A DNA stretch of 64,000 nucleotides. Origin: Escherichia phage AV112. The stretch's first letter is position 1. The number at the start of each line of letters is the position of its first letter. The translations under genes were made by a program, and so were the position numbers. Below the pieces are notes generated by a model. The model was not told the origin of the DNA and did not search any database. It saw only the letters and a list, made by a program, of their open reading frames with translations. The stretch lies in sequence record OR352942.1, one strand, 5' to 3'. This document shows, one piece after another, positions 6,546-40,959 of the stretch.

Positions 6546-6574
6546 AAGTACCTCTTAGCTCAATTCATAGGTCT

Positions 6575-11604: not shown

Positions 11605-12416
11605 AATTCTAATTTATCCTTTTGAAATTCTTCGTCTAAATATGGGTTCCAACCCATTTTAAACCTTTTGATGAAATTATCAATTCTAAATTTCGGTAAG
11701 TTTAAATCCGCAAAAATAGATGATTTACTTTTAAAATCTGGACCTAAATAATCATATAAAATTTCTGCGTATTTTAACCATAATATACAAGTACCAGATT
11801 TAATTGCGTTCGGAGTTTTCCAAGGTTTTACACCATACATCGGATTTCCACTTCCTTTATGCCTGATAGAAGATGAAATTCCAATTTTAATTTTAGCTTC
11901 CTTTGTATGCGAAAATCCACGATGCGGATTTTCTTTCCAGTATTTTTTAGAAGCTTCTGATATTTTCTTTCTGGCTAAATTAGTATGATGCTTTCCATAA
12001 AATCCATGATTTTTGCCTTTATTACGATTTCTTTTAATCATGGTTATTGATTGCTTTTCTCTAGTTTCTTTAGAAGGAGAAATACCATATGTCGTAAATT
12101 TGCCATCAGCATATGCTAAATTAAAATACTCTTTATTCCATACATCTTTTTCTATATTCTTTTGAAATTCAGCTTCAATGCTAGTTATTTGTTCATCTCC
12201 GACTAATTGAAAATATAATATTTCAACTTTCGGCGTTTCTTTCAATAAGGCTTTTTGAAATTCGGAAGATGACGAAGACGAATAATAAAATTTACCATTT
12301 TTATCAATAATATTCGTTCCATCAAAAGTGCAATTGGTTTTACTTCCAATGTAATAATATGGTGGGGTTTTAGCATTAATTCTATTAATAAATGATAGTT
12401 TATATACTACATTCAT
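11595..12416 (-). CDS. free-standing GIY-YIG homing endonuclease (Seg-like)
   Basis: 273 aa; N-terminal VVYKL...PYYYIGSK GIY-YIG-like motif; NUMOD3-like repeats HTNLARKKISEA and HTKEAKIKIGISS; sits between gene 49 and nrdD, stop overlapping the nrdD start. Confidence 0.65.
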   Translation of the reverse strand: MNVVYKLSFINRINAKTPPYYYIGSKTNCTFDGTNIIDKNGKFYYSSSSSSEFQKALLKETPKVEILYFQLVGDEQITSIEAEFQKNIEKDVWNKEYFNLAYADGKFTTYGISPSKETREKQSITMIKRNRNKGKNHGFYGKHHTNLARKKISEASKKYWKENPHRGFSHTKEAKIKIGISSSIRHKGSGNPMYGVKPWKTPNAIKSGTCILWLKYAEILYDYLGPDFKSKSSIFADLNLPKFRIDNFIKRFKMGWNPYLDEEFQKDKLELCL

Positions 12417-12886
12417 TTTAAACTCTTTCTAAGCTGCTTTTTGAATGAAGCTATTAATTGTGTTTTGGTATCAGATTCATTATATTCAAATCCTCTTTGA
12501 AGCATCTCGGCCATCATTTCCTCTTTACCTAGTCTTGAGAACTCTTTAGTTTTGTCTGGAACAAAATTAGGATGGATATTATTATCAGAATAATCTTGTT
12601 TCAAATAAGCGAGAAGAGCTTCAAGCCATTCGAGGTAGTCGACATCACGTCCTTTAAGACCGGAACGGTTGAACTTATGCTTCATTTGACCTTCTGCTGC
12701 GTTGCACAGATTACAGAGTAATCCACGAACTCTACCGGCTTTTGGCCCGTTTAATTCATGGTCGTGGTCAAGATGGTTACCTTGAACATCAGGGTCTAAT
12801 TCACGGTGGCAAATAGGACACTTACCGTTCTGTGCATCATAAAATTTTTGTTTTTCTTCTTTATATTTTGCGCCTGATAATAACAT
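12413..12886 (-). CDS. 49: gp49 endonuclease VII (Holliday junction resolvase)
   Basis: 157 aa; near-identical to T4 endo VII as recalled (GKCPIC..LDHDHELNGPKAG.VRGLLCNLCNAAEGQMKHKFNRSGLKG). Confidence 0.92.
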   Translation of the reverse strand: MLLSGAKYKEEKQKFYDAQNGKCPICHRELDPDVQGNHLDHDHELNGPKAGRVRGLLCNLCNAAEGQMKHKFNRSGLKGRDVDYLEWLEALLAYLKQDYSDNNIHPNFVPDKTKEFSRLGKEEMMAEMLQRGFEYNESDTKTQLIASFKKQLRKSLK

Positions 12887-12921
12887 GATAAACCCTTACC
12901 TTAAATAGATAAGGGTATTTA

Positions 12922-13347
12922 TTAACTTAAACGTCTTTCTAAATATTCAATGTATTCTGCGGCTGCTTGCATCAGGTTACCTTCATAGCCGTCGTTATTT
13001 TCTTGTCCAGCTAATTTAGCTAATGCATAAGAAATTCGTTCACCTTCGAATTCACCAAGTTTACTACCTAGCACATCCGCAATATCAGCCGAATCAATTT
13101 CTTCGAGTTCATCTATTGAATGGGATTCCCAGAAGCACCAAAGAGAAGTATCACGGTCATAGATGCAAAGTTTCTCACCTGTGTTCAACATCACTTCGAT
13201 AATGCCATGGCCGCCATAACCATCTTCGGTAGTAGTACCAATTACCTTGATGATTGTTCCTTTCTTTAATTCAGGAAACTTGTCTTGTAGTTCTTCATCT
13301 TCTTTAACAATCTTGAACCATTTACCGCGAGTTTCAGAAATATTCAT
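12922..13347 (-). CDS. hypothetical acidic protein
   Basis: 141-aa ORF upstream of gene 49. Confidence 0.4.
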   Translation of the reverse strand: MNISETRGKWFKIVKEDEELQDKFPELKKGTIIKVIGTTTEDGYGGHGIIEVMLNTGEKLCIYDRDTSLWCFWESHSIDELEEIDSADIADVLGSKLGEFEGERISYALAKLAGQENNDGYEGNLMQAAAEYIEYLERRLS

Positions 13348-15966: not shown

Positions 15967-16899
15967 TTATGATTTTAATGCATTCATTGCGTTAAAAAGT
16001 TTAGAGTACTGCAACTGGAGCTTGGTAACTACTTGTTGAGCATCACGAAGCTTAGCTTGTGCTTTGTCAAGTTCAACAGACAGTTGATCCACAGTGCCTT
16101 TGATTTGATTATAATAGTAATCTTCGGCAGGAAGAAGGCCGTTAGAGATTTCCAGTTTAGTCGTCGGTGTGCCGTTAAACATAACAGGTTGTGCTGAAGC
16201 TGCATTAATCTTACCGATAGTCGGGGCGACAATAATTGACGCTTCGAACGTTGCATTTTCCTTTTTAAGATTTTGATAGTATTCAGAGTCTTTGTGCCAC
16301 CATGGCGCAGGAACCTTTTTACCAATAGATACACGAGCCTGGATAGCGATATGGCCCTTATTCTTGATAACGTCGATAATATTAAGCTCACGAGAATAAA
16401 TTGCTTTAATCTGGTGAATATTATCACCTAACACTTCCAACGCTTGGTGGAATACACGAGCAACGTTATCATTCTTAGGTTTATACGTAAGAGTGAACTC
16501 GTTCTCACTGATAACCATGATTTCTAACTTATCGTAAGTATATTTCAAATGTTTCATGTTAATTGCTTGAGGACGAATACGAGAAGCAATGGCCATCAGA
16601 TTGTTAAGGTTATTCCGGAACTGCTTAGCGAAATATTGTCCTTCACCACCAATACAAAAATTACGAAGTTTCTGTTTGGCTAATAAACGGCTGAACTCAC
16701 CGTTTTTAATGAACTCTTTAACGGGTGTGTTAGTAACGCATTCAAATTGAGTAAACTTACGAGAAGTAATCCCATAATATGAACAGATTTCCTCAATCTC
16801 TTCAGGAGTCTTTACAGGCATACGGATAGGATTAGGACCTGGGGTATATGCGTTCGAGGTAAATTCTTTGATAAGTTCTCTACGTGTAATAGAAGCCAT
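15967..16899 (-). CDS. hypothetical early protein with C-terminal coiled coil
   Basis: 310 aa; C-terminal LSVELDKAQAKLRDAQQVVTKLQLQYSKLFNAMNALKS. Confidence 0.5.
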   Translation of the reverse strand: MASITRRELIKEFTSNAYTPGPNPIRMPVKTPEEIEEICSYYGITSRKFTQFECVTNTPVKEFIKNGEFSRLLAKQKLRNFCIGGEGQYFAKQFRNNLNNLMAIASRIRPQAINMKHLKYTYDKLEIMVISENEFTLTYKPKNDNVARVFHQALEVLGDNIHQIKAIYSRELNIIDVIKNKGHIAIQARVSIGKKVPAPWWHKDSEYYQNLKKENATFEASIIVAPTIGKINAASAQPVMFNGTPTTKLEISNGLLPAEDYYYNQIKGTVDQLSVELDKAQAKLRDAQQVVTKLQLQYSKLFNAMNALKS

Positions 16900-16925
16900 T
16901 TTATATTCCTCATGTTGAAAAATTT

Positions 16926-16954
16926 ATTATACTCCAACCATCCTTGGTTGTACA
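16926..16954 (-). promoter_or_regulatory. sigma70-like early promoter, same cassette type as 15933-15961
   Basis: Minus strand TGTACA-17 nt-TATAAT; spacer shares ccaaccatccttggttg with the neighbouring cassette. Confidence 0.5.
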
Positions 16955-17950
16955 TCATTCCTTAAGAAGTTTTACTACTTGAATAAGATTAGCTCGTTCT
17001 GTTTTATTTTTACCGTTTAAGCCTGCTAATCGTGAGATTTCATCGTCAGTCTGTTGAATAGTTACATTAAGTTCGTTAATCAAAGCTTCAAAGTATTTGA
17101 TTTGCTCAGCATGTTTTGATTCAAATTTCTGAACCGGAATAACGTCTTGGTTTAGTTCATCAATAAGGTCTTTAAGAGCATCTTCTTGATTGATATCATA
17201 TTCAACTTCTTTTATTTCTTCAACGAGCTCGTCTTTATATCTAACGTCTTTTAGTCCTGGTGCTGGTCCTGAAATCTCTTCTTTAAGAGTACAAACATAT
17301 CCAATACGGTATCCAATGCCGTCTCGCTTGATATCAACTTCGTCAATAAATCCACAATGTTTAAGACCAGAGCCGATTAAGTCAAAATATCCTTGACGAC
17401 GTCCTTCAAACGTTACACGAACTACTAAGACAGTTTTACCTGCAACCTTTTGAAGCTCACATTTATAAAAGTTTGTTGAACCTGAATAACGTGGATGAGT
17501 TTTAAAGTTCATCTGACGATCTAGGCCCATTTGTAAGCGTGCTGATACGGCCATAAAACGTGTTTGGTTCTCGTTAAGATGAGCAACAATCCATTTCAAA
17601 GGCATTTTACACTGTTCACGACCGAACAAATCAGTACGTCCTAGATTACGCAGGATGTTGTTAGAGTTAATCATCGACAGAACATTAAGTTTATTCAGCG
17701 CGCTGAAGATTCCATCAGCCATTGATTTTCCGTAACCTTTACACGCTTTAATAAGCGCTCGCGGTAGATTAGCATAGATTTCAGACGGCATATGAAAATC
17801 AAATTTACTAGTCAGTAATTGATGAACTTGGATAGCAATTTGCTCATAATTAAGTGCTCTGCGATCATTATGATCTTTAAACCACACTTTAATCTGTGAA
17901 GCACATAAACCGTTAATTTCATGTTTTACCGCATCAGATGTAATGCTCAT
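16955..17950 (-). CDS. hypothetical early protein with C-terminal coiled coil
   Basis: 331 aa; acidic coiled-coil tail. Confidence 0.5.
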   Translation of the reverse strand: MSITSDAVKHEINGLCASQIKVWFKDHNDRRALNYEQIAIQVHQLLTSKFDFHMPSEIYANLPRALIKACKGYGKSMADGIFSALNKLNVLSMINSNNILRNLGRTDLFGREQCKMPLKWIVAHLNENQTRFMAVSARLQMGLDRQMNFKTHPRYSGSTNFYKCELQKVAGKTVLVVRVTFEGRRQGYFDLIGSGLKHCGFIDEVDIKRDGIGYRIGYVCTLKEEISGPAPGLKDVRYKDELVEEIKEVEYDINQEDALKDLIDELNQDVIPVQKFESKHAEQIKYFEALINELNVTIQQTDDEISRLAGLNGKNKTERANLIQVVKLLKE

Positions 17951-18012
17951 ATCTATTTCCTCAGATTGAATTGGAACTCAAAACCATTATAACCCGTCCT
18001 TGGGTAAAGCGT

Positions 18013-18540
18013 TTATGCGTGAACCGTCTTTAAACGTTCTTCAAATTTCCGAAGAGTACTAATACGTTCTGCTTTCTGTTTTGTATAGTTTGCAATACGT
18101 TCTGAAGTGAGAGCGTATCGTTCGTTTACTGTTTCTTTCATGAAGTCAGGGATTTCACGAGAAGCTTTAATTTCATCAAACTTATCGAGTACTGCCTGGT
18201 CTTCAGCGATTAAATTTTCGTACATCTCGATATCTTTCTTGATGAAGTCGATATCTTCCTGGGTTACTTTGGATAAACGAGATGCTTTATCCTTTTTGTA
18301 TTGCTCGTTAGTTTCACGAGACCAGAATAATGTACGTTTTTTGTTAGTGTTTTTGTAGACTTCCACAATTCCAACTGAATCGATGATAGCAATCCAATTC
18401 CAGCGAGATTTGAAAATCTGACCTCCGTCCACGGTAATCTCGTTACCATAAGCAACATCATTAAAGAACTTGCTTTGTGCTTCAGATTTAAATTTACCGT
18501 CGTTATAATTTACCAGGTTGAAAATATCTTTAGCGTTCAT
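18013..18540 (-). CDS. hypothetical protein
   Basis: 175-aa ORF. Confidence 0.45.
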   Translation of the reverse strand: MNAKDIFNLVNYNDGKFKSEAQSKFFNDVAYGNEITVDGGQIFKSRWNWIAIIDSVGIVEVYKNTNKKRTLFWSRETNEQYKKDKASRLSKVTQEDIDFIKKDIEMYENLIAEDQAVLDKFDEIKASREIPDFMKETVNERYALTSERIANYTKQKAERISTLRKFEERLKTVHA

Positions 18541-18564
18541 GTTTTACCTCCAGTAGTTGATAGG

Positions 18565-18597
18565 TCTATAATAACACAACCATAGACCTTGTAAACA
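18565..18597 (-). promoter_or_regulatory. early promoter with inverted repeat around the -10
   Basis: Minus strand GTTTACA...TGTGTTATTATAG; plus-strand taggtctat...atagacct inverted repeat. Confidence 0.5.
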
Positions 18598-18598
18598 A

Positions 18599-18886
18599 CT
18601 AAAAGAAACTTTTTTCGGTATTTTTTCCACTGAACCAAACCGACTTCGGGACTTTCTGTAATTTTTCGGATTTAAGTTTCTCTTCCTGTTCTTTCTTATA
18701 TGCATCCTTGTCGTACTGGAACAATTCTAAGGCATTCTTTTGTAGACGGTCTAAGGTAATTAAGGCTTTAGTTTTTCCTTTCAAGGAAGAGTCCTGGCGA
18801 ACCTCCTCGCTATATTGCATCGTAGAACTAACCATACGATGAGCATACAGTTCGACTGCGGCTTTAATTTTTTGCATAAAATCCAT
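18599..18886 (-). CDS. hypothetical protein
   Basis: 95-aa ORF. Confidence 0.4.
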   Translation of the reverse strand: MDFMQKIKAAVELYAHRMVSSTMQYSEEVRQDSSLKGKTKALITLDRLQKNALELFQYDKDAYKKEQEEKLKSEKLQKVPKSVWFSGKNTEKSFF

Positions 18887-19024
18887 AACATATCCTCTTT
18901 GATTTGTACACCATTATTTTTAAATATTTCTATGCCCTCAGTAGGTTCCTGGTGTCCTTCTTTGAGGTAAGCCATATGATTATTCATCTTTATGGCTTTT
19001 GTTACCTCAGAACTTCCTATAAGC

Positions 19025-20026
19025 TTATTTCAGTAAAGTAACTTCAGAGATTTCCTCCCAACCATCTTTATCAGTTGAAATAAAATCTGCTACATAAAGA
19101 GCCGTACGTAATGATACATTGCGAAGACGAGATACATTAGCCTTCATCCAGGACAATGCTTTATACGTTTCTGCATCTGTCAGACCACGTTTCTGCATCA
19201 TGTCAGTAGATAATATTACATCTTCAACTCGAACCATAATCTCTTCATTAGAGTGTACTCCAAGGTCGAGATACACTGAACGAGATACTAAAGCTTGAAG
19301 GTGTGGGGCAAGTTTCGAACCGCGTTCTAACTCTTTATCGATATCAACGTTTGTAATGAAAACGATAGTACCTTCAAACTCAAATTCTTTATCAATACCC
19401 TTATCATCGAGATAAGATGACGCAGTGCTCCAACAAACTTTGCGTTTATCTCCAGTATCTAATGCTGCTTTAAGAAGGTTCAAGATGTCCATATCTGAGA
19501 ATACGTCAACGTCGTCGATTAAGAGAACGCTGTCTGCATCACGGTTGAGCCAAAGTTGTTCGTAAAGGCCAATACCGGAGATTTTACCATTAATGCTTTT
19601 GTATTTGATGAAACCATTATCATTAGCGTTATTAAGTGCTTTATCCAGAGAATACGTCTTACCAATACCGGCTGCACCTGAAATAATGAGTGAACGAATT
19701 TTGCCATCGATAATGCCATTCGTCATCATGTTCATTACTTTAAAGCGTTTGTTGATACGAGTTTTCATATCTTCAGTGCTTTCAACAACTGCAACTGGTG
19801 ACGTCTCAACTCCTTCCATTACGATGTCTGATTTGAAGACCCATACTCCACGTTCAGACCCATCAATCATAACGAAAATTTTACCATCACCTAAGTGGGA
19901 ACATTCAGGATTAAGCTTTGCTGGGAACCATGTCTTTGTGGCAACATAAGAACCAGAGATTTCGTTATTACGATAAATACCTTTTTTGATTTGAACGTTG
20001 AACATTTTATTCTCCAATTTACTCAT
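19025..20026 (-). CDS. P-loop NTPase (AAA-like ATPase)
   Basis: 333 aa; Walker A ISGAAGIGKTYS and Walker B VLLIDDVD. Confidence 0.6.
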   Translation of the reverse strand: MSKLENKMFNVQIKKGIYRNNEISGSYVATKTWFPAKLNPECSHLGDGKIFVMIDGSERGVWVFKSDIVMEGVETSPVAVVESTEDMKTRINKRFKVMNMMTNGIIDGKIRSLIISGAAGIGKTYSLDKALNNANDNGFIKYKSINGKISGIGLYEQLWLNRDADSVLLIDDVDVFSDMDILNLLKAALDTGDKRKVCWSTASSYLDDKGIDKEFEFEGTIVFITNVDIDKELERGSKLAPHLQALVSRSVYLDLGVHSNEEIMVRVEDVILSTDMMQKRGLTDAETYKALSWMKANVSRLRNVSLRTALYVADFISTDKDGWEEISEVTLLK

Positions 20027-20039
20027 TTCGTTTCGATAG

Positions 20040-20072
20040 GTCTATAATAACATGTTTAAAGCAAAAGTAAAC
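20040..20072 (-). promoter_or_regulatory. early promoter (GTTTAC, 17-nt spacer, extended -10 TGT-TATTAT)
   Basis: RC reads GTTTAC-TTTTGCTTTAAACATGT-TATTAT, about 40 nt upstream of the ATPase start. Confidence 0.55.
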
Positions 20073-20074
20073 AA

Positions 20075-20293
20075 TTATTTGCGACGAGATTTTTTGGTAA
20101 GAGGTTGAAAGAACACTGCTTTACCTGCTGGGGTTAAGGTGACTCGTAATGCATTACCGATTCCTAAGGATGCTTTAACTAGACCTTTAGCTTTCAGTTC
20201 ACCGAATGCTTGACGTTGGTCTGCATCACGAGTGTTAACCATAAGACCTTTATCACCTGCTTCACGAATCATTTCTAACATTTTGGTTTTCAT
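20075..20293 (-). CDS. hypothetical small basic protein (start moved to internal Met)
   Basis: MKTKMLEMIREAGDKG... preceded by GAGGAG; the longer track ORF would run through the promoter. Confidence 0.45.
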   Translation of the reverse strand: MKTKMLEMIREAGDKGLMVNTRDADQRQAFGELKAKGLVKASLGIGNALRVTLTPAGKAVFFQPLTKKSRRK

Positions 20294-20379
20294 TTTGTTC
20301 TCCTCTTGTTTTGATAGGTCTATAATAACATATCCTAAAAGCATGTACACTACTTTTTAAAAATATTTTAACCCCCTAA

Positions 20380-20395
20380 AGGGACCCGAAGGTCC
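20380..20395 (-). terminator. hairpin GGGACC-UUCG-GGUCCC just after the stop of 20402-20683
   Basis: Plus strand gggaccc-gaag-gtcccc; minus-strand UUCG tetraloop hairpin followed by UUUAGGGGG rather than a clean U-run. Confidence 0.35.
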
Positions 20396-20401
20396 CCACA
20401 T

Positions 20402-20683
20402 TTACTTATCGCACTTAGCAACATAATTAGGCATATCACAGAATACGGAGCGAGTAACTACTCGGCCCTTTGACCATGCTTCAGTTGCTTGTCCGGCTGT
20501 GCTATTAATATAGCTTGATCTAATGTTCTCAATACCCTGAGAATGTGATGCATTTACCGAACCATTAGAAGACCCAGAAGACTGGTTACCACCAGCTCCT
20601 GCGCTACCGCTGGCTGCACCCGTGGTAGCACCAACAGAGAATGCCATCATTACTGCGAATAAACCAATTACTATTTTTTTCAT
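20402..20683 (-). CDS. small secreted Gly/Ser-rich protein
   Basis: 93 aa; N-terminal signal-peptide-like MKKIVIGLFAVMMAFSVGA, then a Gly/Ser/Asn-rich low-complexity stretch. Confidence 0.5.
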   Translation of the reverse strand: MKKIVIGLFAVMMAFSVGATTGAASGSAGAGGNQSSGSSNGSVNASHSQGIENIRSSYINSTAGQATEAWSKGRVVTRSVFCDMPNYVAKCDK

Positions 20684-20714
20684 ATTTACCTCAAGTTAAT
20701 GGTTATTTATCTAC

Positions 20715-21704
20715 TTATTTATAGTAAGAATTATGATTTTCGAGATAGACTTGTTCAAGGAAGTCATCCCAGAAACTCATATCTACTTTTTGTTGCATAC
20801 CGTTCTTGGCAGCTTGTTCTGATGCATGTTCAACTTGGTCAACGATATCTTCTAGGAATTCTTGTACAGTTTTAAACGTATGTTTACCAAGCTTAACATC
20901 GAGAATAAATGGAGCATCCTGAAGTGGGTAAACCAGGTCGCCGGTTTTATAAATTTCTAATAGTTGAAGTCCACCACGACATGCATGACTCAATGCTTTC
21001 CAGTCAATACCTTCGTTAGCTTCTGCCTTACGAGCACGTTCACCATAGTTCTCTTCCAGTTTAACCAGGATGGCATTGAACTCTTTATTGGTTAACGTGT
21101 CTTGGAATTTACGGTCTAACAGATTATAGAATGTTTGCTTACCTGTTTTCTCGTTTTCAGTTTCAACCCACGAAGCAAATTCACCTACAGGCAGAACATT
21201 CTTCATATGTGATAAACGAATTACTGCACCATTATCAAAGTATTGTCCCCATTCATTAGAACGTTTAAGGGCTTGACGAAGAACAGCCAGTCGAGAACCC
21301 TTGACACCGTATTTAGAAGCTTGTTTACGGACATACCCTAAATAAGATTTCATGTTAGTGGTATAGAAACGAGACCTGTTATCTTGAATATACTTCCATA
21401 CATCAGGCAAATCGGATTTAACTACTAAACTTGGTGGAGTGTGAAGCATATCTAATGCGACGGTTTCGCCATCTGCAGCTAGTTTAAAGAAATATTTGAG
21501 ACTATACAACTCATGGTCCACGTCGTCTTTTGTGTTCTTAGAAGATGTGTTATTTGTGTTCTTGCTCATATGTTCTTTAACGTTACCGGTCAAGATATCA
21601 CGAGCATGAGGGACATAAATTTCTTTAAAATCGACGTCAGATTCAGGAGTAGACGTTCCATAAAGGTGGCTACCAAAGTAGCCTTTCATAATTGTTTTCA
21701 TCAT
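20715..21704 (-). CDS. Pol-beta-superfamily minimal nucleotidyltransferase
   Basis: 329 aa; N-terminal GSHLYGTSTPESDVDF fits the hG[GS]-x(9-13)-D-x-[DE] nucleotidyltransferase signature. Confidence 0.55.
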   Translation of the reverse strand: MMKTIMKGYFGSHLYGTSTPESDVDFKEIYVPHARDILTGNVKEHMSKNTNNTSSKNTKDDVDHELYSLKYFFKLAADGETVALDMLHTPPSLVVKSDLPDVWKYIQDNRSRFYTTNMKSYLGYVRKQASKYGVKGSRLAVLRQALKRSNEWGQYFDNGAVIRLSHMKNVLPVGEFASWVETENEKTGKQTFYNLLDRKFQDTLTNKEFNAILVKLEENYGERARKAEANEGIDWKALSHACRGGLQLLEIYKTGDLVYPLQDAPFILDVKLGKHTFKTVQEFLEDIVDQVEHASEQAAKNGMQQKVDMSFWDDFLEQVYLENHNSYYK

Positions 21705-22174
21705 TTGGCCTTATATTCGAGAGTAGGACAGATTTTTTCTTTACGAGCTTTAAGGTATTCACCTATTAATGATTTCTTACGTTCAATAGGCTCAAGACCA
21801 TTTTTAATTCGTTCTTGGTTTTGTGCAATGAGCTCAATTTCTTTATAATATTTTCTGTCGTTATATTTGTCTAACAACCAAGACGGACCAATTACCAACC
21901 CGGTAGCAATAAAAGCCATGACTGCTACCATTAAAATGCCTACACCAATTGAGGCCGGAACTAATGTCCATAGACTGCTAAAAACAAAGAATCTAGTTAA
22001 AATTTCCTGGCCAATGATTACTACTGCTGCTAAAATAGCAAATCCAATAATTGAAACAGACAATACTGGGATTAACGTTTTCCAAAAATAAGCACACAAC
22101 GTTTTCGGGCGATTCCATGTACTATTGAACGCGGCATAAATTTTAAAGTGCCAAGAGTTTTCATTGATAATCAT
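21701..22174 (-). CDS. membrane protein (multiple TM segments)
   Basis: 157 aa; several hydrophobic segments; stop overlaps the nucleotidyltransferase start. Confidence 0.5.
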   Translation of the reverse strand: MIINENSWHFKIYAAFNSTWNRPKTLCAYFWKTLIPVLSVSIIGFAILAAVVIIGQEILTRFFVFSSLWTLVPASIGVGILMVAVMAFIATGLVIGPSWLLDKYNDRKYYKEIELIAQNQERIKNGLEPIERKKSLIGEYLKARKEKICPTLEYKAK

Positions 22175-22183
22175 AATAATTCC

Positions 22184-22714
22184 TTATTTCAAAGTCGGGA
22201 TAATAGAATCAAGATAAGCTTTAAGAGCAACTGCTTCATCTTTGTCTAATGTAATGATATGTTGACGAAGGTCATCAATTTGACGAATAACTACGACATC
22301 GCCATCTTCATAAGAAGGATTAACGCCTAAGACCGTTGTAGAGTCAGGGTTGGCCGGATTTGTAATAAAAGCATTACGGCATTTAGCCCATTGAAGTTTG
22401 GCCTTTTTGGCTGTTTCAGATTCCACGAATTCTTTCACCTTAGTGACGAATGTTTTCCAATTATTAATAGAAAAACATTCGTCTTCAGTTTCGATATTAA
22501 CCCCACTATAAAGTCCATGATAAAAACGAACTTGAAGGTCTTCGTCAATGTTAATTACAGATGCATGGCCCGGTGGATTGAGTTTCAAAATCTTGTCCAG
22601 TTCCATAGGAAGAATAGTAGCAGCATCATCTTCTTGTGTCAGAACATACACATAACCACGTTTTTCGATACATAAATCACCAAACAACTCGGTTGTTTCA
22701 ATTACAGTTTTCAT
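22184..22714 (-). CDS. hypothetical protein
   Basis: Track ORF 22184-22726; likely start at MKTVIETT (ATG at 22712-22714). Confidence 0.45.
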   Translation of the reverse strand: MKTVIETTELFGDLCIEKRGYVYVLTQEDDAATILPMELDKILKLNPPGHASVINIDEDLQVRFYHGLYSGVNIETEDECFSINNWKTFVTKVKEFVESETAKKAKLQWAKCRNAFITNPANPDSTTVLGVNPSYEDGDVVVIRQIDDLRQHIITLDKDEAVALKAYLDSIIPTLK

Positions 22715-22715
22715 A

Positions 22716-22895
22716 TTATTCACCAATTAAAGTTTCAACAAAATTCACCAAAGCATTCTGGCAAGCATCAACCTGATTTTCATAAAAGTCTCCGTTATCA
22801 TTTACCGCATGATAAGCTACATCATTCAAATCTGAATCGGCTTCACGTAAGTCACGGATAAGGTCCATCAATTTATTAGCTTGTTCACGGGTCAT
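22716..22895 (-). CDS. hypothetical small protein (59 aa, below track cutoff)
   Basis: Manual translation MTREQANKLMDLIRDLREADSDLNDVAYHAVNDNGDFYENQVDACQNALVNFVETLIGE; stop abuts the next start. Confidence 0.3.
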   Translation of the reverse strand: MTREQANKLMDLIRDLREADSDLNDVAYHAVNDNGDFYENQVDACQNALVNFVETLIGE

Positions 22896-23020
22896 TTTAC
22901 CATACTCGTTTCAATAAGATTCACTATGCCGTTTACCATGTTATAAGTAAACATCGGATAATTGTATTGTACTACAACATAAGCGATAAGCAAAAGTTTC
23001 ATTTTGTTCTCCATTTGTTT

Positions 23021-23060
23021 TGGTAGGATTACTATATCATAGTCCTACCAAGACGTAAAC
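23021..23060 (-). promoter_or_regulatory. early promoter with inverted repeat (gtagga...tcctac)
   Basis: RC reads GTTTAC-N18-TATAGT; the -10 is flanked by a 6-bp inverted repeat. Confidence 0.45.
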
Positions 23061-23293
23061 TACCGATTGTGTTTTAAATGTTGATAAAGTTCTTCAACTT
23101 GTTTAGGGTCCAAAACAATTAAGTCATTTTCTTGGCGAAGATAAATCCATCCCTTATCCCCAGGGCCATTTTTACAAAACATCACCACCGTATCATCATC
23201 TTCAGCGCTTTCAGGTAAAAGTTCAAGTACACCGTCTTCAGATTTTCCAGTATAATCGTAAAGCATAATGTCCTCACATAATCTCGTTAACAT
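23060..23293 (-). CDS. hypothetical acidic protein
   Basis: 77-aa ORF. Confidence 0.4.
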   Translation of the reverse strand: MLTRLCEDIMLYDYTGKSEDGVLELLPESAEDDDTVVMFCKNGPGDKGWIYLRQENDLIVLDPKQVEELYQHLKHNR

Positions 23294-23492
23294 ACATTTG
23301 TAATTCGGTGTGGGCTTCGGCCATCTTTTTCATAGCTTTGTTAATGTCGATGTCTCCATCTTCGCATCCATGAGCATTTTCCCAATCAGATACCGCATTA
23401 GCGTACTCTTCAATCAAAAACATTAACTTAGAAATTTTTTCTTTACGTGTCATAACGTTCTCCTCTAGTAAGTAAAGACTACTATAACACAA
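23274..23492 (-). CDS. hypothetical protein
   Basis: 72-aa ORF. Confidence 0.4.
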   Translation of the reverse strand: MCYSSLYLLEENVMTRKEKISKLMFLIEEYANAVSDWENAHGCEDGDIDINKAMKKMAEAHTELQMYVNEIM

Positions 23493-23509
23493 CCTGAGGA
23501 GAAGTAAAC
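23477..23509 (-). promoter_or_regulatory. early promoter GTTTAC-17 nt-TATAGT
   Basis: RC of gactactataacacaacctgaggagaagtaaac. Confidence 0.5.
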
Positions 23510-23519
23510 TGCTAAACGC

Positions 23520-23547
23520 AAAAAAGCCCCAACCATAAGGAAGGGGC
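23520..23547 (-). terminator. rho-independent terminator, copy 1 of a conserved GCCCC...GGGGC hairpin
   Basis: Plus strand aaaaaagcccc-aaccataaggaa-ggggc; minus-strand hairpin followed by UUUUUU, directly after the rI stop. Confidence 0.6.
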
Positions 23548-23554
23548 TAGTAAA

Positions 23555-23857
23555 TTAGATAGATGTAGGCTCTAATTTTATTTTCATGAACTCGGCAAAT
23601 TGTCTGGCAGTTTTTATGCCTTGTTCATGACATTCAAATGCATCATCACAGGGGCTATTTTTGTAATGCTTTGCCATATACTTATAGAATTTTTCAGAAT
23701 TCTCGACATTTTGAATTTCAAACAAAGTATATACGTTTTTAATCCCTGATTCCATAAAGTTATCAAAATATGGGTCGGTATACGCAGTACCAACGTTAGG
23801 AGTTGTTGCTGCAAAAAACCCCAGCATCGCCATGACAGCTATCGCTCTTAAGGCCAT
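23555..23857 (-). CDS. rI: RI lysis-inhibition regulator (periplasmic antiholin)
   Basis: 100 aa; MALRAIAVMAMLGFFAATTP signal/SAR-like N-terminus, then DPYFDNFMESGI...YKNSPCDD.FEC...MKIKLE, resembling T4 RI as recalled; sits next to tk as in T4. Confidence 0.7.
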   Translation of the reverse strand: MALRAIAVMAMLGFFAATTPNVGTAYTDPYFDNFMESGIKNVYTLFEIQNVENSEKFYKYMAKHYKNSPCDDAFECHEQGIKTARQFAEFMKIKLEPTSI

Positions 23858-23869
23858 ATAGGCCTCCTG

Positions 23870-24082
23870 TTAATTTTGGCCAGTATTTATTTTTCGCCTT
23901 TGGACGGCCTTAACATCTGTGAGGTATTTTTCCAGCTTGCGCTTGCGTGTATAATCAGCTTTAGAACCAGTTTGACGGATATCCTCGTTTAAATGAGAAA
24001 TAGAATGTCCTAATTCTCTTCGGATTTCATCCAATTGGGTTACAGTAAGATTACGAAGTTGTCTTTCGTTTAATTGCTGCAT
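23870..24082 (-). CDS. hypothetical basic protein
   Basis: 70-aa ORF between rI and tk. Confidence 0.4.
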
Positions 24083-24109
24083 ATATACCTCTTGGTTAGA
24101 TATTAGTAT

Positions 24110-24691
24110 TTATAACAACCCTGTCAAATCATTCCAATGCTTCCGGCATAATGACACATATCTATCAGTATCACCAATTTCAATTTGACTGCCATCTGTA
24201 ATTGGAAGTCCGTCTTCCGTGACTCTAGCTACCATTGTGGCCTTTTTACCACAGTGACAGACACCTTTAAGTTCAACAAGCTTATCAGCAATAGCCATTA
24301 ACGCTTGAGAACCTTCAAATAGATTACCTTTAAAATCTGTTCGTAGTCCATATGCCATTACCGGCACATTGTATACGTCAACAATACGACTAAGTTGATA
24401 CACCTTTTCAGTAGTTAAGAACTGAGCTTCGTCAACAAATACACAATGAATATCCTTTTGTGCTGCAGCCCATTTATAGAATTCAAAGATATCCATGTCT
24501 TTTGTAATTATATTGGCGTCCTGACGAATACCAATACGAGAGACTATTTCACCTTTTGAATCACGAGTATCAATAGCCGGTTTAAGAACTAATACACCCA
24601 TGCCACGTTCTTTATAGTTATGTGCGGCAGTAAGTAATGAAGCAGACTTACCAGCGTTCATAGCGGCATATGTAAAAATTAAACTAGCCAT
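24110..24691 (-). CDS. tk: thymidine kinase
   Basis: 193 aa; P-loop AAMNAGKSASLL, VFVDEAQF Walker B, C-terminal CHCGKKAT...CRKH zinc motif. Confidence 0.92.
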   Translation of the reverse strand: MASLIFTYAAMNAGKSASLLTAAHNYKERGMGVLVLKPAIDTRDSKGEIVSRIGIRQDANIITKDMDIFEFYKWAAAQKDIHCVFVDEAQFLTTEKVYQLSRIVDVYNVPVMAYGLRTDFKGNLFEGSQALMAIADKLVELKGVCHCGKKATMVARVTEDGLPITDGSQIEIGDTDRYVSLCRKHWNDLTGLL

Positions 24692-24692
24692 T

Positions 24693-24881
24693 TTAATCCT
24701 TAGTTAAATTTTCTAAATATGTTTTTAAATCATTTTCAGCTTTATCGATAGATTTTACTAATTCGTAATATGTTTCGGCATCTCCATATTCAGAAGATAA
24801 TTCAAAAGACAAATCCTTTTCTAAACTAATAATTTCACCAACTAAAAATAATATTTCGTTCTTTTGTTCGCGAGTAATCAT
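24693..24881 (-). CDS. small acidic protein, tandem paralogue 1
   Basis: 62 aa; similar N-terminal pattern to the adjacent 63-aa ORF (REQKNEILFLVGEI vs KEQKDKLFSLIHEV). Confidence 0.45.
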   Translation of the reverse strand: MITREQKNEILFLVGEIISLEKDLSFELSSEYGDAETYYELVKSIDKAENDLKTYLENLTKD

Positions 24882-25069
24882 AAGGAATTTATATAATCAA
24901 TGAGTTCTTGTTCTTTATTATCGAATTCTTTAGAAAGTTCTTCGTACTCGTTTGCACTAAAAGGACCGCATTCATTACAAACTTTTTCCAATTCACTATT
25001 TTTATCCATAACTTCATGGATAAGAGAAAAGAGTTTGTCTTTTTGTTCTTTACTTAAACTCATAACCAT
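24878..25069 (-). CDS. small acidic protein, tandem paralogue 2
   Basis: 63 aa; see previous. Confidence 0.45.
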   Translation of the reverse strand: MVMSLSKEQKDKLFSLIHEVMDKNSELEKVCNECGPFSANEYEELSKEFDNKEQELIDYINSL

Positions 25070-25287
25070 GTCACCTTTAAGCAGTATTCTTCTACATGCT
25101 GTTTACGACCTTTCTTATCAATAAAGGTATATTCAACGAATGTTCCGATGTAGTCTTTATCTACATCATGTGGACTATTAATTGGACATTTGGTACGACA
25201 AATGCGTTCCCATTGACGAATAATTACTGCCTTATTCTTTGGGTCATATGGATGTGGATAATGTATATTCATAATAATGGTTCCCAA
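25060..25287 (-). CDS. hypothetical protein
   Basis: 75-aa ORF. Confidence 0.4.
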   Translation of the reverse strand: MGTIIMNIHYPHPYDPKNKAVIIRQWERICRTKCPINSPHDVDKDYIGTFVEYTFIDKKGRKQHVEEYCLKVTWL

Positions 25288-25766
25288 TCAACAATCACAA
25301 TTTCTAGTTTAGTGGAATACGTATCTAAAATCTCTTCGATGACATCCCAGTTTCCACCACCGATACCTGCACCAATTCTTGGCATATAAATTACAGGCTT
25401 TGTTATCTTATTCTTTCCGAATTCATTTAATTCTATTATACAATTCATTAAAGCATAGTACTCAAAATTAGGTCCAGGCTCAAACTGTGTATAAAGATTA
25501 AAGCAATAAGCTTTATGGGTCTTAAAATATTTTTCATAAACCGAATAAGTCCCGAGTTTAGACTCGTCTCCGAATTCGGTTTGAAGTTTATCGGCTTCTA
25601 AAATTTTTGGATAAGCCTTTGCTAATTGTCCTGCCACACCAGCGCCCATTGTATGAAAACAATTACACCCATGAGCAATATTATTACCTTTAGAAAACAG
25701 GGCGACAATATCGCCCTTGATATAGTTTTTAATCACTTGCTGCAAGTCCTCTAGTATAAGAGTCAA
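25269..25766 (-). CDS. macro domain protein (ADP-ribose binding/hydrolase fold)
   Basis: 165 aa; macrodomain-like Gly-rich motifs HGCNCFHTMGAGVAGQL and PRIGAGIGGGNW. Confidence 0.6.
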   Translation of the reverse strand: MTLILEDLQQVIKNYIKGDIVALFSKGNNIAHGCNCFHTMGAGVAGQLAKAYPKILEADKLQTEFGDESKLGTYSVYEKYFKTHKAYCFNLYTQFEPGPNFEYYALMNCIIELNEFGKNKITKPVIYMPRIGAGIGGGNWDVIEEILDTYSTKLEIVIVDWEPLL

Positions 25767-26076
25767 CTAGACGGTCCACCATAGAATTGCATGCTGCCTT
25801 ATCTTTAGGTTCCGCCACCGAGCATTCTAATATTTGCCATTTTTTATAGTATCTTTTAATTAAGGTAGACGCCTTGAACCTACTAGTCGCCCCATCTTTT
25901 TCTCCGTCTTTATACGCATATAACAATTTTTGTGAAAAATCTACTTTACACTCTTGACTTTTACCACAATAATCAGACGCTGTTCTGTTTGTATACTCCG
26001 TTACATCAGTATATGTAGTATTAGCAAGAGCGTTAAATGAAACCAAGCCAACTATTAAAGCCAACATTTTGGTCAT
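25729..26076 (-). CDS. secreted/periplasmic protein
   Basis: 115 aa; signal peptide MTKMLALIVGLVSFNALA. Confidence 0.45.
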   Translation of the reverse strand: MTKMLALIVGLVSFNALANTTYTDVTEYTNRTASDYCGKSQECKVDFSQKLLYAYKDGEKDGATSRFKASTLIKRYYKKWQILECSVAEPKDKAACNSMVDRLVDSYTRGLAASD

Positions 26077-36709: not shown

Positions 36710-37265
36710 GGATTAAATTGTTAGTGAAATTAGGACTAACAACCATGGTTTCATAAAGCGCATCAATAGCACTTAAAGCATCAACTCTTTTAAGCAAAGG
36801 CTTGCCTTCATACATAGTTTCAGAATCGACGATTAACGTAAAGTAATATTTTTTATTATTGACCAGAACTTCTGTATCAATATAAAACATGTTAGATCTT
36901 AAAAGCTTATCTCTAAAACCATAATAATCTTCAGAGCGTTCGCTGATATATTCCAATTCAGTGTTTAAACAACAAACAGACCACGTAGGAGCAACGAAAT
37001 CAGTGAATCTAATATCATGGTCTGCAACTAGTTTAGCAATAGCTCCGATATCATGAATCATAATACCTGGGGCTAATAAAGATTTTCGGTTATTTGCATA
37101 TTCAGTTGTCTCATAAGAAGACGACCAGTACCATTTACGTCCAGTTGCAACATATCGTAATGAATCAACTAAAGACGTAGGTGGATTTACCTTATTTCGG
37201 AACTCTTCGAACATTGAGTCAATATCATTATTTTGGTTTCGCATGTTAACTCCTTTATTATCCAA
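36648..37265 (-). CDS. soluble protein with xFIMECR motif near the C-terminus
   Basis: 205 aa; ...NNLILEQFIMECREYVKANPIHAN. Confidence 0.45.
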   Translation of the reverse strand: MDNKGVNMRNQNNDIDSMFEEFRNKVNPPTSLVDSLRYVATGRKWYWSSSYETTEYANNRKSLLAPGIMIHDIGAIAKLVADHDIRFTDFVAPTWSVCCLNTELEYISERSEDYYGFRDKLLRSNMFYIDTEVLVNNKKYYFTLIVDSETMYEGKPLLKRVDALSAIDALYETMVVSPNFTNNLILEQFIMECREYVKANPIHAN

Positions 37266-37293
37266 AAGGAGGACCGGAGTCCTCCGTATTATT

Positions 37294-37887
37294 TTATTTC
37301 AAAGAGTTAATATATTCTTGTACATCAGCAGAAGTGGTTTCGACACCAGCTGGAGTGCCATTGAACGTTTCAACACGAGTCAGAGTGTCTTCGATATCAA
37401 CCTTAGTCAGTGCAGCGATTTCAATTACATCGTCAGCCGTAGAGATACCAAGGGCATTGGCTGCTCGAGTTTCACGAATGTATTCGAGTTTGATTGCCAG
37501 GTTCTGACGAGCATCGTCAAGTTCAACCACCTTACGAGCAATTTCAATTCGCATAGCAGCGTACCCGTCAGCTTTTGTATTAAGTTGTTCGGCGGTTCGA
37601 CGATACAGAAGACCAAGCTTAGCATGCATGGTAACATCTTGTCCTTCAGCCAGGAGCTTACGAATTTCAAGTTCCTTAGAAGCGGCTTGCTTATTCTTTT
37701 CATTAACAAGTTCGCGAATACGTTTTTCTTCATTAATAGATTTAACAGAAGCCGTTTTTAGTTCTTTGATTTGGGTAATCAACTTATCTGCGGCTGCGTT
37801 ATACTGTTCTTCGACAGTCAGATTTTTAGCCATAGCAGTACCCAGTTTAGTGCGGATGAATTCAACAAGTTTCTTCAGTGTGTTCAT
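37294..37887 (-). CDS. coiled-coil protein (possibly PspA/IM30-like)
   Basis: About 197 aa from MNTLKKL; long predicted helices; the PspA-like call rests on composition only. Confidence 0.4.
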
Positions 37888-39479: not shown

Positions 39480-39740
39480 TACGAAACGCCGGGATTCGAA
39501 CCCGGTTATTAAGCAGTTGACGCTACTCAATATTTTTAAAAGGCCATATCTCGACCATATCCGAACGTTCCGTCAAAAACGCTACTCGGCTTACGGCAAA
39601 GATATTTCCTCGAATCGATAATTCTGTGCGCCGTTTCAGCTGTGATAGTAAAGAACCAGAACACAGTAAAACTGTGGGAGGAACTATACTCCAGGGAACA
39701 TCAGTCCGACGACTTACCGGTAGCGACCCGGTTTCTTGTT
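39480..39740 (-). ncRNA. probable stable small RNA(s) with tRNA-like 3' domain (T4 species 1/2-like)
   Basis: No ORF; minus strand contains a T-arm CCGGG-TTCGAAT-CCCGG followed by an acceptor-like strand CGTTTCG that could pair with CGGAACG about 85 nt upstream, but the D/anticodon region is not canonical. Confidence 0.35.
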
Positions 39741-39816
39741 TGGTCGAGACAGTAGGGGTCGAACCTACGACCTAGGACTTAGAAGGTCCTTGCTCTTCCT
39801 TCTGAGCTATGCCTCG
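39741..39816 (-). tRNA. tRNA-Arg (anticodon TCT), CCA encoded
   Basis: Manual fold: acceptor CGAGGCA/TGTCTCG, D-arm GCTC..GAGC, anticodon loop CTTCTAA, T-arm GTAGG-TTCGACC-CCTAC. Confidence 0.8.
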
Positions 39817-39820
39817 GATT

Positions 39821-39895
39821 TGGCGGACATGCATGGATTCGAACCATGGACCAATTGATTAACAGTCAACTGCTCTACCACTGAGCTACACATCC
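39821..39895 (-). tRNA. tRNA-Asn (anticodon GTT), CCA encoded
   Basis: Manual fold: acceptor GGATGTG/CATGTCC, D-arm GCTC-AGTGGTA-GAGC, anticodon loop CTGTTAA, T-loop TTCGAAT. Confidence 0.75.
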
Positions 39896-39899
39896 AAAT

Positions 39900-39986
39900 T
39901 GGTTGGGAGTGATGGAGTCGAACCACCTGAGTCGCAATGACAATGGATTTACAGTCCACACCGCTACCTCTACGGGATAACTCCCC
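39900..39986 (-). tRNA. tRNA-Tyr (anticodon GTA), long variable arm, CCA encoded
   Basis: Manual fold: anticodon stem GTGGA/TCCAT, loop CTGTAAA, about 15-nt variable arm, T-arm GGTGG-TTCGACT-CCATC; pair 1:72 appears as G-A, so the 5' end is uncertain by 1 nt. Confidence 0.6.
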
Positions 39987-39995
39987 AAATTAATT

Positions 39996-40070
39996 TGGTG
40001 GCCCTGGGTGGAATTGAACCACCATCTGGCGATTATGAGTCGCTTGCTTGAACCTTCCAGCTACAGGGCC
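39996..40070 (-). tRNA. tRNA with anticodon CAT (Ile2/lysidine type or elongator Met), CCA encoded
   Basis: Manual fold: acceptor GGCCCTG/CAGGGCC (1:72 paired, so not initiator), anticodon loop CTCATAA, T-arm GGTGG-TTCAATT-CCACC. Confidence 0.7.
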
Positions 40071-40071
40071 T

Positions 40072-40147
40072 TGGTGCTGATTGACGGAATTGAACCACCG
40101 ACCTTCTCATTACAAGTGAGTTGCTCTACCTACTGAGCTAAATCAGC
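40072..40147 (-). tRNA. tRNA-Thr (anticodon TGT), CCA encoded
   Basis: Manual fold: acceptor GCTGATT/AATCAGC, D-arm GCTC-AGTAGGTA-GAGC, anticodon loop CTTGTAA. Confidence 0.8.
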
Positions 40148-40152
40148 AAAAC

Positions 40153-40242
40153 TGGCGGAGGCGATAGGATTTGAACCTATGAGTCGCCGGAGCGACTGCC
40201 GGTTTTCAAGACCGGTGCATTAAACCACTCTGCCACGCCTCC
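40153..40242 (-). tRNA. tRNA-Ser (anticodon TGA), type II, CCA encoded
   Basis: Manual fold: acceptor GGAGGCG/CGCCTCC, anticodon stem CCGGT/ACCGG, loop CTTGAAA, long variable arm, T-arm ATAGG-TTCAAAT-CCTAT. Confidence 0.8.
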
Positions 40243-40244
40243 AG

Positions 40245-40318
40245 TCTCCATACAAGGATTTGAACCTTGGACCTCCTGATCCCAAATCAGGCGCTCTACC
40301 AAACTGAGCTACACGGAG
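40245..40318 (-). tRNA. tRNA-Pro (anticodon TGG), no encoded CCA; 2 nt upstream of tRNA-Ser
   Basis: Manual fold: acceptor CTCCGTG/TATGGAG, D-arm GCTC-AGTTTGGTA-GAGC, anticodon loop TTTGGGA, T-arm CAAGG-TTCAAAT-CCTTG. Confidence 0.8.
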
Positions 40319-40328
40319 TAAATTAAAT

Positions 40329-40402
<74 letters not shown>

Positions 40403-40407
40403 AAATT

Positions 40408-40494
40408 TGGTGCGAGAAGTGGGACTCGAACCCACAAGGAAATCATTCCGCAGCATTTTAAGTGCTGTGCCTTTACCAATTTGACCATTCTCGC
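40408..40494 (-). tRNA. tRNA-Leu (anticodon TAA), type II, CCA encoded
   Basis: Manual fold: acceptor GCGAGAA/TTCTCGC, anticodon stem CAGCA/TGCTG, loop CTTAAAA, long variable arm, T-arm GTGGG-TTCGAGT-CCCAC. Confidence 0.8.
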
Positions 40495-40495
40495 G

Positions 40496-40568
40496 CTGGG
40501 AATAAAGGACTCGAACCTTTGCATCCTGGAATCAAAATCCAGTGCCTTACCAACTTGGCTAATTCCCA
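40496..40568 (-). tRNA. tRNA-Gln (anticodon TTG), no encoded CCA; 1 nt upstream of tRNA-Leu
   Basis: Manual fold: acceptor TGGGAAT/ATTCCCA, anticodon stem CTGGA/TCCAG, loop TTTTGAT, T-arm AAAGG-TTCGAGT-CCTTT. Confidence 0.8.
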
Positions 40569-40665
40569 ATTATTAACAAAGGCTCTCAAGCAAGAACCCT
40601 TGATGATAGAGGGTATTAATCAGTGCGATATGAGTTAATAATAACAAATAATTCTTAAAGCATAT

Positions 40666-40959
40666 TTACCATTTATGATAATACATATTTACGATGCATT
40701 CAAGACCCAAAGGATTCTTGAAAATATCATATTCAAGAGGACCTTTTTCCGTTTCAATAAAGAAATCAAAGTTAACTGTGTTAAATTTACGGTCTTCCTT
40801 TACTAATTTAACTTGAGAAGATGAACGGTCAATGTAAACCTTTTCAACTTCAAAACATGTTAAAATGCCATAATCATCAATCAAGGCTTTAGCCGCATCT
40901 TGATCATATTTATATCCATTTTCAATGGATGATACTTTCGCATAAAGAATCATTATCAA
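40666..40959 (-). CDS. hypothetical protein
   Basis: 97-aa ORF upstream of the tRNA array. Confidence 0.45.
   Translation of the reverse strand: MIMILYAKVSSIENGYKYDQDAAKALIDDYGILTCFEVEKVYIDRSSSQVKLVKEDRKFNTVNFDFFIETEKGPLEYDIFKNPLGLECIVNMYYHKW

Follow-up and report, generated by a model that had tools for sequence, protein, structure and literature searches.

An RlaP-family nucleotidyltransferase with a predicted role in RNA repair in the nrdC-mobD-tk region of Escherichia phage AV112

A stretch of 64,000 nucleotides (nt) of Escherichia phage AV112 (accession OR352942.1), referred to as the window, was analysed with attention to six minus-strand genes at positions 19025-22726, among them those for a Pol-beta-fold nucleotidyltransferase (NTase) and a P-loop ATPase. 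This region is best read as a normal part of the early-transcribed nrdC-mobD-tk variable region, with no dedicated multi-gene system and with an NTase that acts in RNA repair, a reading to which a probability of roughly 0.6 was assigned. Three of the genes are common with T4 (nrdC.10, nrdC.11, and mobD.1) and three are lineage-variable small genes, for proteins of 72, 93, and 157 amino acids. The identity and family statements made for the locus are held with high confidence, and all of it is already catalogued: the proteins are identical to database entries, the T4 orthologues are named, and publications already cover the NTase family with the role predicted for it in phages.

The window DNA was 100% identical to that of Escherichia phage AV113, of whose record it forms the final 64 kb according to the match coordinates, and 97-98% identical to other Mosigvirus genomes (T4-like, Straboviridae). 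Comparison with annotated T4 and a local tblastn search identified the region as the T4 nrdC-mobD-rI-tk early region, with gene-for-gene synteny from nrdC.8 through tk. Identity to the T4 counterparts was 77% for NrdC.10 (the ATPase), 78% for NrdC.11 (the NTase), and 47% for MobD.1; this comparison gave no counterpart of the 72-amino-acid, 93-amino-acid, or 157-amino-acid membrane protein, and the position of the membrane-protein gene is taken in T4 by the homing endonuclease gene mobD. An initial annotation, made from the sequence alone, had described five open reading frames (ORFs) within 19025-22714. All five were found on the minus strand with the motifs quoted for them, and each matched a PHROG family (E 1e-37 to 1e-161); these matches, together with the wide occurrence of the NTase and ATPase in phages, mark the ORFs as real genes rather than chance frames. 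The same range also holds a sixth gene, for the MobD.1 homologue, which had not been mentioned. It had been allowed that the genes might match T4 proteins with established, unrelated roles; the matches are to nrdC.10, nrdC.11, and mobD.1, which are genes without established roles in T4.

The nucleotidyltransferase and RNA repair

The NTase gene (20715-21704, minus strand) is the orthologue of T4 nrdC.11 and encodes 329 amino acids, or 328 if translation begins at the second of two adjacent ATGs, both of which overlap the stop codon of the membrane-protein gene (TGA within AAATGATGAAAA; ATGA). The protein contains GSHLYGTSTPESDVDF, and its assignment to the Pol-beta NTases in the initial annotation held up in a profile search against Pfam PF10127 (RlaP, 'RNA repair pathway DNA polymerase beta family'), with 49.1 bits against a cut-off of 23 (E 7.7e-13) and an alignment of residues 7-152 to profile positions 23-148 of 249. 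It also matched PHROG 388 'nucleotidyltransferase' (E 2.6e-126) and is present in 1542 phage records, and all listed close homologues bear PF10127. A first homologue search had given near-identical phage proteins only; a scan of 1.84 billion representatives of clusters at 50% identity yielded 3214 relatives, 742 of them at E<=1e-30. Residues G11, S12, S22, D23, D25, Y132, K236, R243, and G273, which include the Pol-beta G-S and D-x-D motifs, were invariant in an alignment of 113 sequences. D63, likely the third catalytic carboxylate, did not vary in a further alignment that took in bacterial members linked to RNA repair; H240 was likewise among the invariant residues in alignments of phage and bacterial members. 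The NTase is a full-length RlaP-family enzyme with its catalytic set (G-S...D-x-D...D) intact. In one T4 record (OL964745.1; 159,752 bp) only the last 39 residues of the NTase were matched (12% of the query), which suggests a deletion of most of nrdC.11 in that isolate or construct.

According to Burroughs and Aravind, as cited in two later papers, the family name RlaP comes from linkage to RNA ligases (PMC7824862, PMC12776372). For phage RlaPs, the published prediction is that they put back nucleotides missing from RNA ends, for instance in the wake of RloC, so that ligation can follow (PMC7824862). In a preprint of December 2025, two Pseudomonas RlaPs added 1-2 nucleoside monophosphates to RNA 3'-OH ends, preferred Mn2+, left DNA and protein unmodified, and, on a mimic of cleaved tRNA, favoured the 3' end at the break site over the acceptor end (PMC12776372). 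T4 NrdC.11 was placed there by name in RlaP cluster 5 (PMC12776372), and the NTase and AAA assignments of nrdC.11 and nrdC.10 date from 2006 (PMC1524935).

The bacterial context of the family was determined by scanning 185,579 species genomes, which gave 80 loci with full-length homologues of the phage NTase (33-52% identical, mostly 35-42%); neighbouring ORFs were clustered and the representatives named by Pfam. RtcB, a Pnkp-type kinase-phosphatase-ligase, Hen1, or Ro/TROVE was encoded in 17 of these loci (RtcB in 9, Pnkp-type in 7, Hen1 in 6, and Ro/TROVE in 4), and five Pnkp genes adjoin the NTase homologue on the same strand with gaps of no more than 10 nt. With RNA-repair genes beside its bacterial cousins, the clade that includes the phage NTase thus shows the defining linkage of the RlaP family. 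At three alphaproteobacterial loci (L064 5487-6008, L090 5366-6004, and L041 6974-7507) a small HD-domain protein gene adjoins or overlaps the RlaP homologue; the L064 copy is HD_4 by Pfam, a RelA/SpoT-type HD.

The phage encodes the enzymes with which such an activity could cooperate, since the AV113 genome carries Pnk (36816-37715), an RNA ligase of RnlA size (39669-40793), and one of RnlB size (12114-13112). Given the RlaP family membership, the RNA-repair neighbours in bacteria, and the Pnk and two RNA ligases of the phage, the likeliest predicted role of the NTase is to patch nuclease-damaged tRNA ahead of ligation. Host anticodon nucleases that also trim a nucleotide (e.g. RloC) would leave shortened tRNA halves, the NTase would re-add one or more nucleotides at the RNA ends of the damaged tRNA, and the ends healed by Pnk would then be sealed by Rnl1 or Rnl2 to restore a full-length, usable tRNA. 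Addition of nucleotides to RNA 3' ends by NrdC.11 is considered rather probable; a repair role directed specifically against RloC-type damage is put forward tentatively, at somewhat less than even odds. Of the counter-defence function suggested in the initial annotation, only the part that concerns the NTase is plausible, in the form of RNA repair that answers host ribotoxins, in keeping with the published family prediction (PMC7824862, PMC12776372); for a multi-gene module it was not supported.

Some phage loci place the NTase close to genes of tRNA metabolism. In Alishewanella phage Slicko01 (L005 6652-8888) a gene for a CCA-adding enzyme runs at its end into the start of the NrdC.11 homologue, and the two could be a tRNA-end maintenance pair of the phage; a tRNA array lies a few kb away, with a macro-domain gene near. 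In Rhodobacter phage RcXuper the NTase homologue lies within a tRNA array, and genes resembling rnlA, pseT, or those of CCA enzymes occur within 10 kb of the NTase at a handful of distant viral loci. On IMG/VR contig 3300011187_000036 (L176 968-1888, 5557-11319) the RlaP homologue is about 4-9 kb from 12 tRNA genes and a predicted tmRNA, for which the tag peptide is ANDESYTPVAQAA. The window has a minus-strand array of 10 tRNA genes at 39741-40568 (Arg, Asn, Tyr, Met, Thr, Ser, Pro, Gly, Leu, and Gln), as expected for a T4-like phage.

The arrangement in Slicko01 and the presence of CCA-enzyme homologues about 5 kb from the NTase in three viral loci would also suit an enzyme that acts on intact RNA ends, either by restoring or extending the 3' CCA of tRNA or by tailing host tRNA or mRNA against translation in the manner of MenT toxins, and, when given total RNA of E. 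coli, RlaP does label full-length tRNA and rRNA, with little nucleoside triphosphate specificity (PMC12776372). The bacterial cousins, however, lie beside end-healing and sealing enzymes (Pnkp, RtcB, and Hen1) and not beside CCA enzymes, the break site was favoured over the acceptor end in the cleaved-tRNA mimic (PMC12776372), and neither PADLOC nor NCBIfam gave a toxin-antitoxin signature. Action on intact ends is therefore considered unlikely, and the patching of damaged tRNA is preferred.

Separate inheritance of the genes and the cassettes between them

The initial annotation had gathered the ATPase, the NTase, the membrane protein, and the small proteins into one counter-defence or host-takeover module, an interpretation that is now regarded as highly improbable. 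The order of the genes speaks for it: Mosigvirus and Acinetobacter phage AbTZA1 both retain the order membrane-NTase-ATPase, the stop codon of the membrane-protein gene does overlap the NTase start as had been described, and, in a survey of 80 IMG/VR loci covering the NTase plus or minus 10 kb, the ATPase was found 0.1-3.3 kb downstream of the NTase in 35, all of them T4-like with an NTase at least 50% identical. In the remaining 45 loci, however, no ATPase was present within 10 kb of the NTase; the components are lost independently of one another, and the genes assort freely among related phages. An ATPase without a nearby NTase occurs in Vibrio phage VAP7 (Ackermannviridae), Klebsiella jumbo phage RaK2, and two jumbo-phage contigs, and an NTase without an ATPase within 7-10 kb occurs in Aeromonas, Slopekvirus, Shewanella, Alishewanella, and Rhodobacter phages. 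Records for the NTase and the ATPase number 286 and 149 in Klebsiella phages and 59 and 121 in Vibrio phages, so that the NTase stands without the ATPase in at least 137 records from Klebsiella phages, and the ATPase without the NTase in at least 62 from Vibrio phages; considerably more than a hundred genomes thus hold just one of the two genes. The 72-amino-acid and 93-amino-acid genes are rare (4 and 1 of the 80 viral loci, respectively), T4 lacks the membrane-protein gene, and genome-reduction experiments have shown that T4 can dispense with the interval nrdC.11-mobD.3 (PMC9825161). PADLOC gave no match to support a defence-related module.

A further separation is seen in the DNA between the genes. 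The intergenic cassette at 20313-20397 (minus strand), located 3' of the 93-amino-acid gene, consists of a GGGACC-UUCG-GGUCCC hairpin (20381-20396) with a T-rich tail, then a promoter-like TGTACA-16-TATTAT (20349-20322) and a repeat at 20313-20331. A second promoter-like element (20035-20071, minus strand; TTTACT-16-TATTAT at 20071-20044) immediately precedes the ATPase gene. Its 3' part, ATGTTATTATAGACCTATC, repeats 20313-20331 exactly and recurs with one mismatch before the nrdC.8-like gene. The repeated segment, (A/G)TGTTATTATAGACCTATC, is found upstream of several early genes (18559-18577, 20035-20053, and 20313-20331), with looser copies at window positions 6566, 27103, 35112, and 38788; seven copies were counted in the window at up to 3 mismatches against 0.03 expected. 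T4 has the same layout of hairpin plus promoter between nrdC.11 and nrdC.10. In three lineages (this phage, the sister phage ST0, and T4) such a unit stands between the NTase unit and the ATPase, and the ATPase gene is preceded by a hairpin and a separate promoter-like element.

The 72-amino-acid gene is flanked by two exact copies of the repeat, and ST0, which is without the gene, keeps exactly one promoter copy at the junction. PeSL promoter-terminator cassettes are known to shuffle genes in hyperplastic regions of T4-type phages (PMC2839356, PMC4122927), and the 72-amino-acid gene appears to be a PeSL-like cassette insertion or deletion, an example of variable genes that, as judged from these repeats, come and go between repeated hairpin/promoter cassettes. 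A conserved terminator-like and promoter-like unit thus divides the NTase from the ATPase, and the small genes of that interval are taken to be interchangeable cargo. Overall, a generic scan for sigma-70 promoters gave no more hits than chance would (29, with 29.5 expected); statements on promoters therefore rest on the repeated, conserved cassette instead. The upstream motifs look more like T4 early promoters (GTTTAC-type -35). They were also considered as MotA-type middle promoters, which was rejected as the spacing from TGCTTTA to the -10 element is 7 nt, off the consensus.

The genes are accordingly very probably not an obligate module, and the ATPase is an orphan AAA+ protein that is inherited, and probably transcribed, on its own; no functional tie to the NTase was found. 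A narrower proposal, for Tevenvirinae and Acinetobacter T4-like phages, holds that NrdC.10 is kept just downstream of the RlaP NTase, often with the membrane protein upstream, because they work together as a three-part RNA-repair or counter-defence unit in which the NrdC.10 ring motor could remodel or deliver damaged tRNA or ribosome-bound RNA for repair; this too was given very little credence.

Several points weigh against reading the locus as a normal early region with an NTase that acts in RNA repair. The Pfam RlaP model covers residues 7-152 of the NTase only, and its matches to solved structures are weak (Foldseek E ~6e-3, template modelling score 0.24-0.35). RlaP biochemistry is confined to the P. 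fluorescens and P. aeruginosa enzymes, and even the bacterial RNA-repair role rests on in vitro assays of one preprint (PMC12776372). T4-like phages carry Pnk and the RNA ligases away from the NTase, as seen in the window and in T4. Of 37 distant viral NTase loci, only 8 had tRNA genes no farther than 10 kb away, a count with no baseline rate, so tRNA proximity lends weak support, though it is striking in Slicko01 and RcXuper. Finally, Tevenvirinae and Acinetobacter phages retain the NTase and the ATPase in this order (the 35 of 80 loci above), and some functional link between the two may exist in these phages.

Protein models and the remaining genes

A confident AlphaFold2 model of the NTase (predicted local distance difference test, pLDDT, 94.6) has an N-terminal mixed alpha/beta part followed by helices; a beta-sheet segment (about residues 177-201) interrupts the helical part, and residues 309-328 form the last helix. 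The crystal structure of PfRlaP is reported to have an N-terminal NTase domain and a C-terminal helical domain ending in a long helix (PMC12776372). The nearest solved folds are kanamycin NTase, the structural-genomics protein 3c18, and Hailong HalB, and these matches to the predicted model confirm the fold class and nothing further; sequence searches of the PDB, with the single protein and with a profile, gave nothing specific. That the best structural matches are kanamycin/aminoglycoside NTases and the HalB oligodeoxyadenylate synthase might suggest that the enzyme modifies something other than RNA (a protein, a small molecule, or an antibiotic-like compound) or synthesises a signalling nucleotide, but this is considered very improbable, since the matches (E ~6e-3 or worse, 8-16% identity) reflect the common Pol-beta fold, the sequence family is RlaP, the RlaPs that have been assayed left protein and DNA unmodified (PMC12776372), and no defence-system or CD-NTase profile was matched. 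The link to nucleotide signalling or toxin-antitoxin systems raised in the initial annotation found no support: PADLOC profiles for defence systems and CD-NTases did not match the NTase, the membrane protein, or the small proteins, and NCBIfam MntA scored 12.9 bits against the NTase (E 0.076; cut-off 60).

The ATPase, orthologue of T4 NrdC.10, was described in the initial annotation as a protein of 333 amino acids. That open frame exists (19025-20026, minus strand) and holds GAAGIGKT and VLLIDDVD. The start is most likely the second ATG, which predicts 326 amino acids (19025-20005), because GGAGAATAAAATG at this ATG (GGAG-spaced) is conserved in ST0 and T4, GenBank and RefSeq annotate the protein from there, and the match to PHROG 1250 (phrog_1250; 1311 phage records) begins at residue 8. 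Diversity within the family was obtained by querying with the distant ATPase of Vibrio phage VAP7, and in 95 diverse homologues the invariant residues were G120 and K123 of Walker A, D171 and D172 of Walker B, N226, R249, and R307. The AlphaFold2 model (pLDDT 95) shows an N-terminal all-beta domain (a beta-barrel, about residues 9-71), an AAA+ core, and a four-helix lid, with an extra strand-helix-strand in the core between helix 179-188 and strand 220-225. With Walker A, Walker B, sensor 1, the arginines, and a helical lid on a five-stranded core, the P-loop protein has a genuine AAA+ fold, as had been implied by its motifs. It is probably oligomeric, and the beta-hairpin-like insertion before sensor 1 together with the N-terminal beta-barrel in the model suggests that it is probably a ring-forming motor.

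The listed comparisons for the ATPase were proteasomal Rpt, BrxL, papillomavirus E1, and RuvB. Its sequence profile showed a weak preference for RFC/Cdc6/ORC/DnaC, sequence and profile searches of the PDB gave marginal RFC/Cdc6/ORC matches only, Pfam AAA models matched most family members below threshold, and among PADLOC profiles only SspF was hit (E 0.022). Of the AAA+ clades considered, the clamp loader/initiator type and the MCM/MoxR/sigma-54 activator type, the ATPase was assigned to neither. On a 317-kb contig from the Joint Genome Institute (L095 3625-16441) a distant NrdC.10-type ATPase has a RecA-like gene on one side and a DEAD/ResIII helicase on the other, and a DnaB-like helicase lies farther along; this neighbourhood is of the DNA-transaction type, on one contig only. 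A role for the ATPase drawn from jumbo-phage context was dropped as the contexts were inconsistent, a second contig having ligase fragments and a metallophosphatase.

The remaining genes, all on the minus strand, were assigned as follows. The 72-amino-acid basic protein (20075-20293; phrog_6001; isoelectric point 10.8) is the product of the cassette gene described above. The 93-amino-acid protein (20402-20683; phrog_2243) has a hydrophobic, signal-like N-terminal segment, a Gly/Ser/Asn-rich tract (76% Gly/Ser/Asn/Ala/Thr in residues 20-60), and two C-terminal cysteines, gave a sub-threshold match to a YbgS-like Pfam model (19.4 bits; cut-off 27), and by its sequence is probably exported. The 157-amino-acid membrane protein (21701-22174; phrog_944) has a hydrophobic region at about residues 29-102; homologues occur in 39 of the 80 viral NTase loci, upstream of the NTase at variable distance. 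The MobD.1 (Y05I) homologue (22184-22714, or to 22726) has 176 amino acids from its ATG and matches Pfam T4_y05I_N (E 7.5e-40) and T4_y05I_C (E 2.5e-18; PF24449/PF24448). An Rfam search of 16000-26000 matched no RNA family. In the AV113 record (119909-125643; window 16955-21704) the ATPase, the RlaP NTase, and the nrdC.5- to nrdC.9-like proteins are all labelled 'thioredoxin', as in many phage records; no thioredoxin match was obtained for any of these proteins, and the label has apparently spread from the T4 gene names nrdC.N.

Relation to known systems and implications

The likeness to T4 NrdC.11 is close, with the same map position, PF10127, and the same G-S, D-x-D, and third Asp in addition to 78% identity. 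Among bacterial RlaPs, full-length homology extends to members within RtcB and Pnkp/Hen1 operons; the Pseudomonas RlaP gene, however, lies between rtcB and rtcA, whereas the phage NTase gene is not beside an RNA ligase, and the Pseudomonas protein belongs to cluster 1a and NrdC.11 to cluster 5 (PMC12776372). The ATPase shows no difference of substance from T4 NrdC.10 (77% identity), which is found downstream of nrdC.11 behind the same hairpin/promoter cassette. As in the T4 Pnk/Rnl1 tRNA repair that counters the PrrC anticodon nuclease, Pnk and both RNA ligases are encoded by the phage, and the RlaP product, a 3'-OH, fits ligases that use a 5'-phosphate such as Rnl1 (PMC12776372), but the classical route needs no nucleotide addition and its genes are far from nrdC.11. 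The intergenic arrangement resembles PeSL cassettes in that a gene absent from a sister phage is flanked by a hairpin and, after it, a sequence like an early promoter, with a duplicated promoter at the junction; the published cassettes come from RB49/phi1, PST, and nt-1 pairs and have somewhat other stem sequences, and here the comparison is one of sequence only (PMC2839356, PMC4122927).

There is little new in the locus itself, which consists in the main of orthologues of T4 nrdC.10, nrdC.11, and mobD.1 with an NTase whose family and predicted role are published. The 'thioredoxin' labels on the NTase and ATPase in many GenBank records are wrong and merit correction, and NrdC.10 is a widespread phage AAA+ ATPase, with about 1300 records. 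If the NTase, ATPase, and membrane protein did work together, they would be a previously unrecognised three-part phage RNA-repair or counter-defence unit. Phage RlaPs occur in more than 1500 phage genome records, and T4-like phages, which have Pnk/Rnl1 repair, are suited to the question of whether nucleotide re-addition beats tRNA-trimming nucleases such as RloC.

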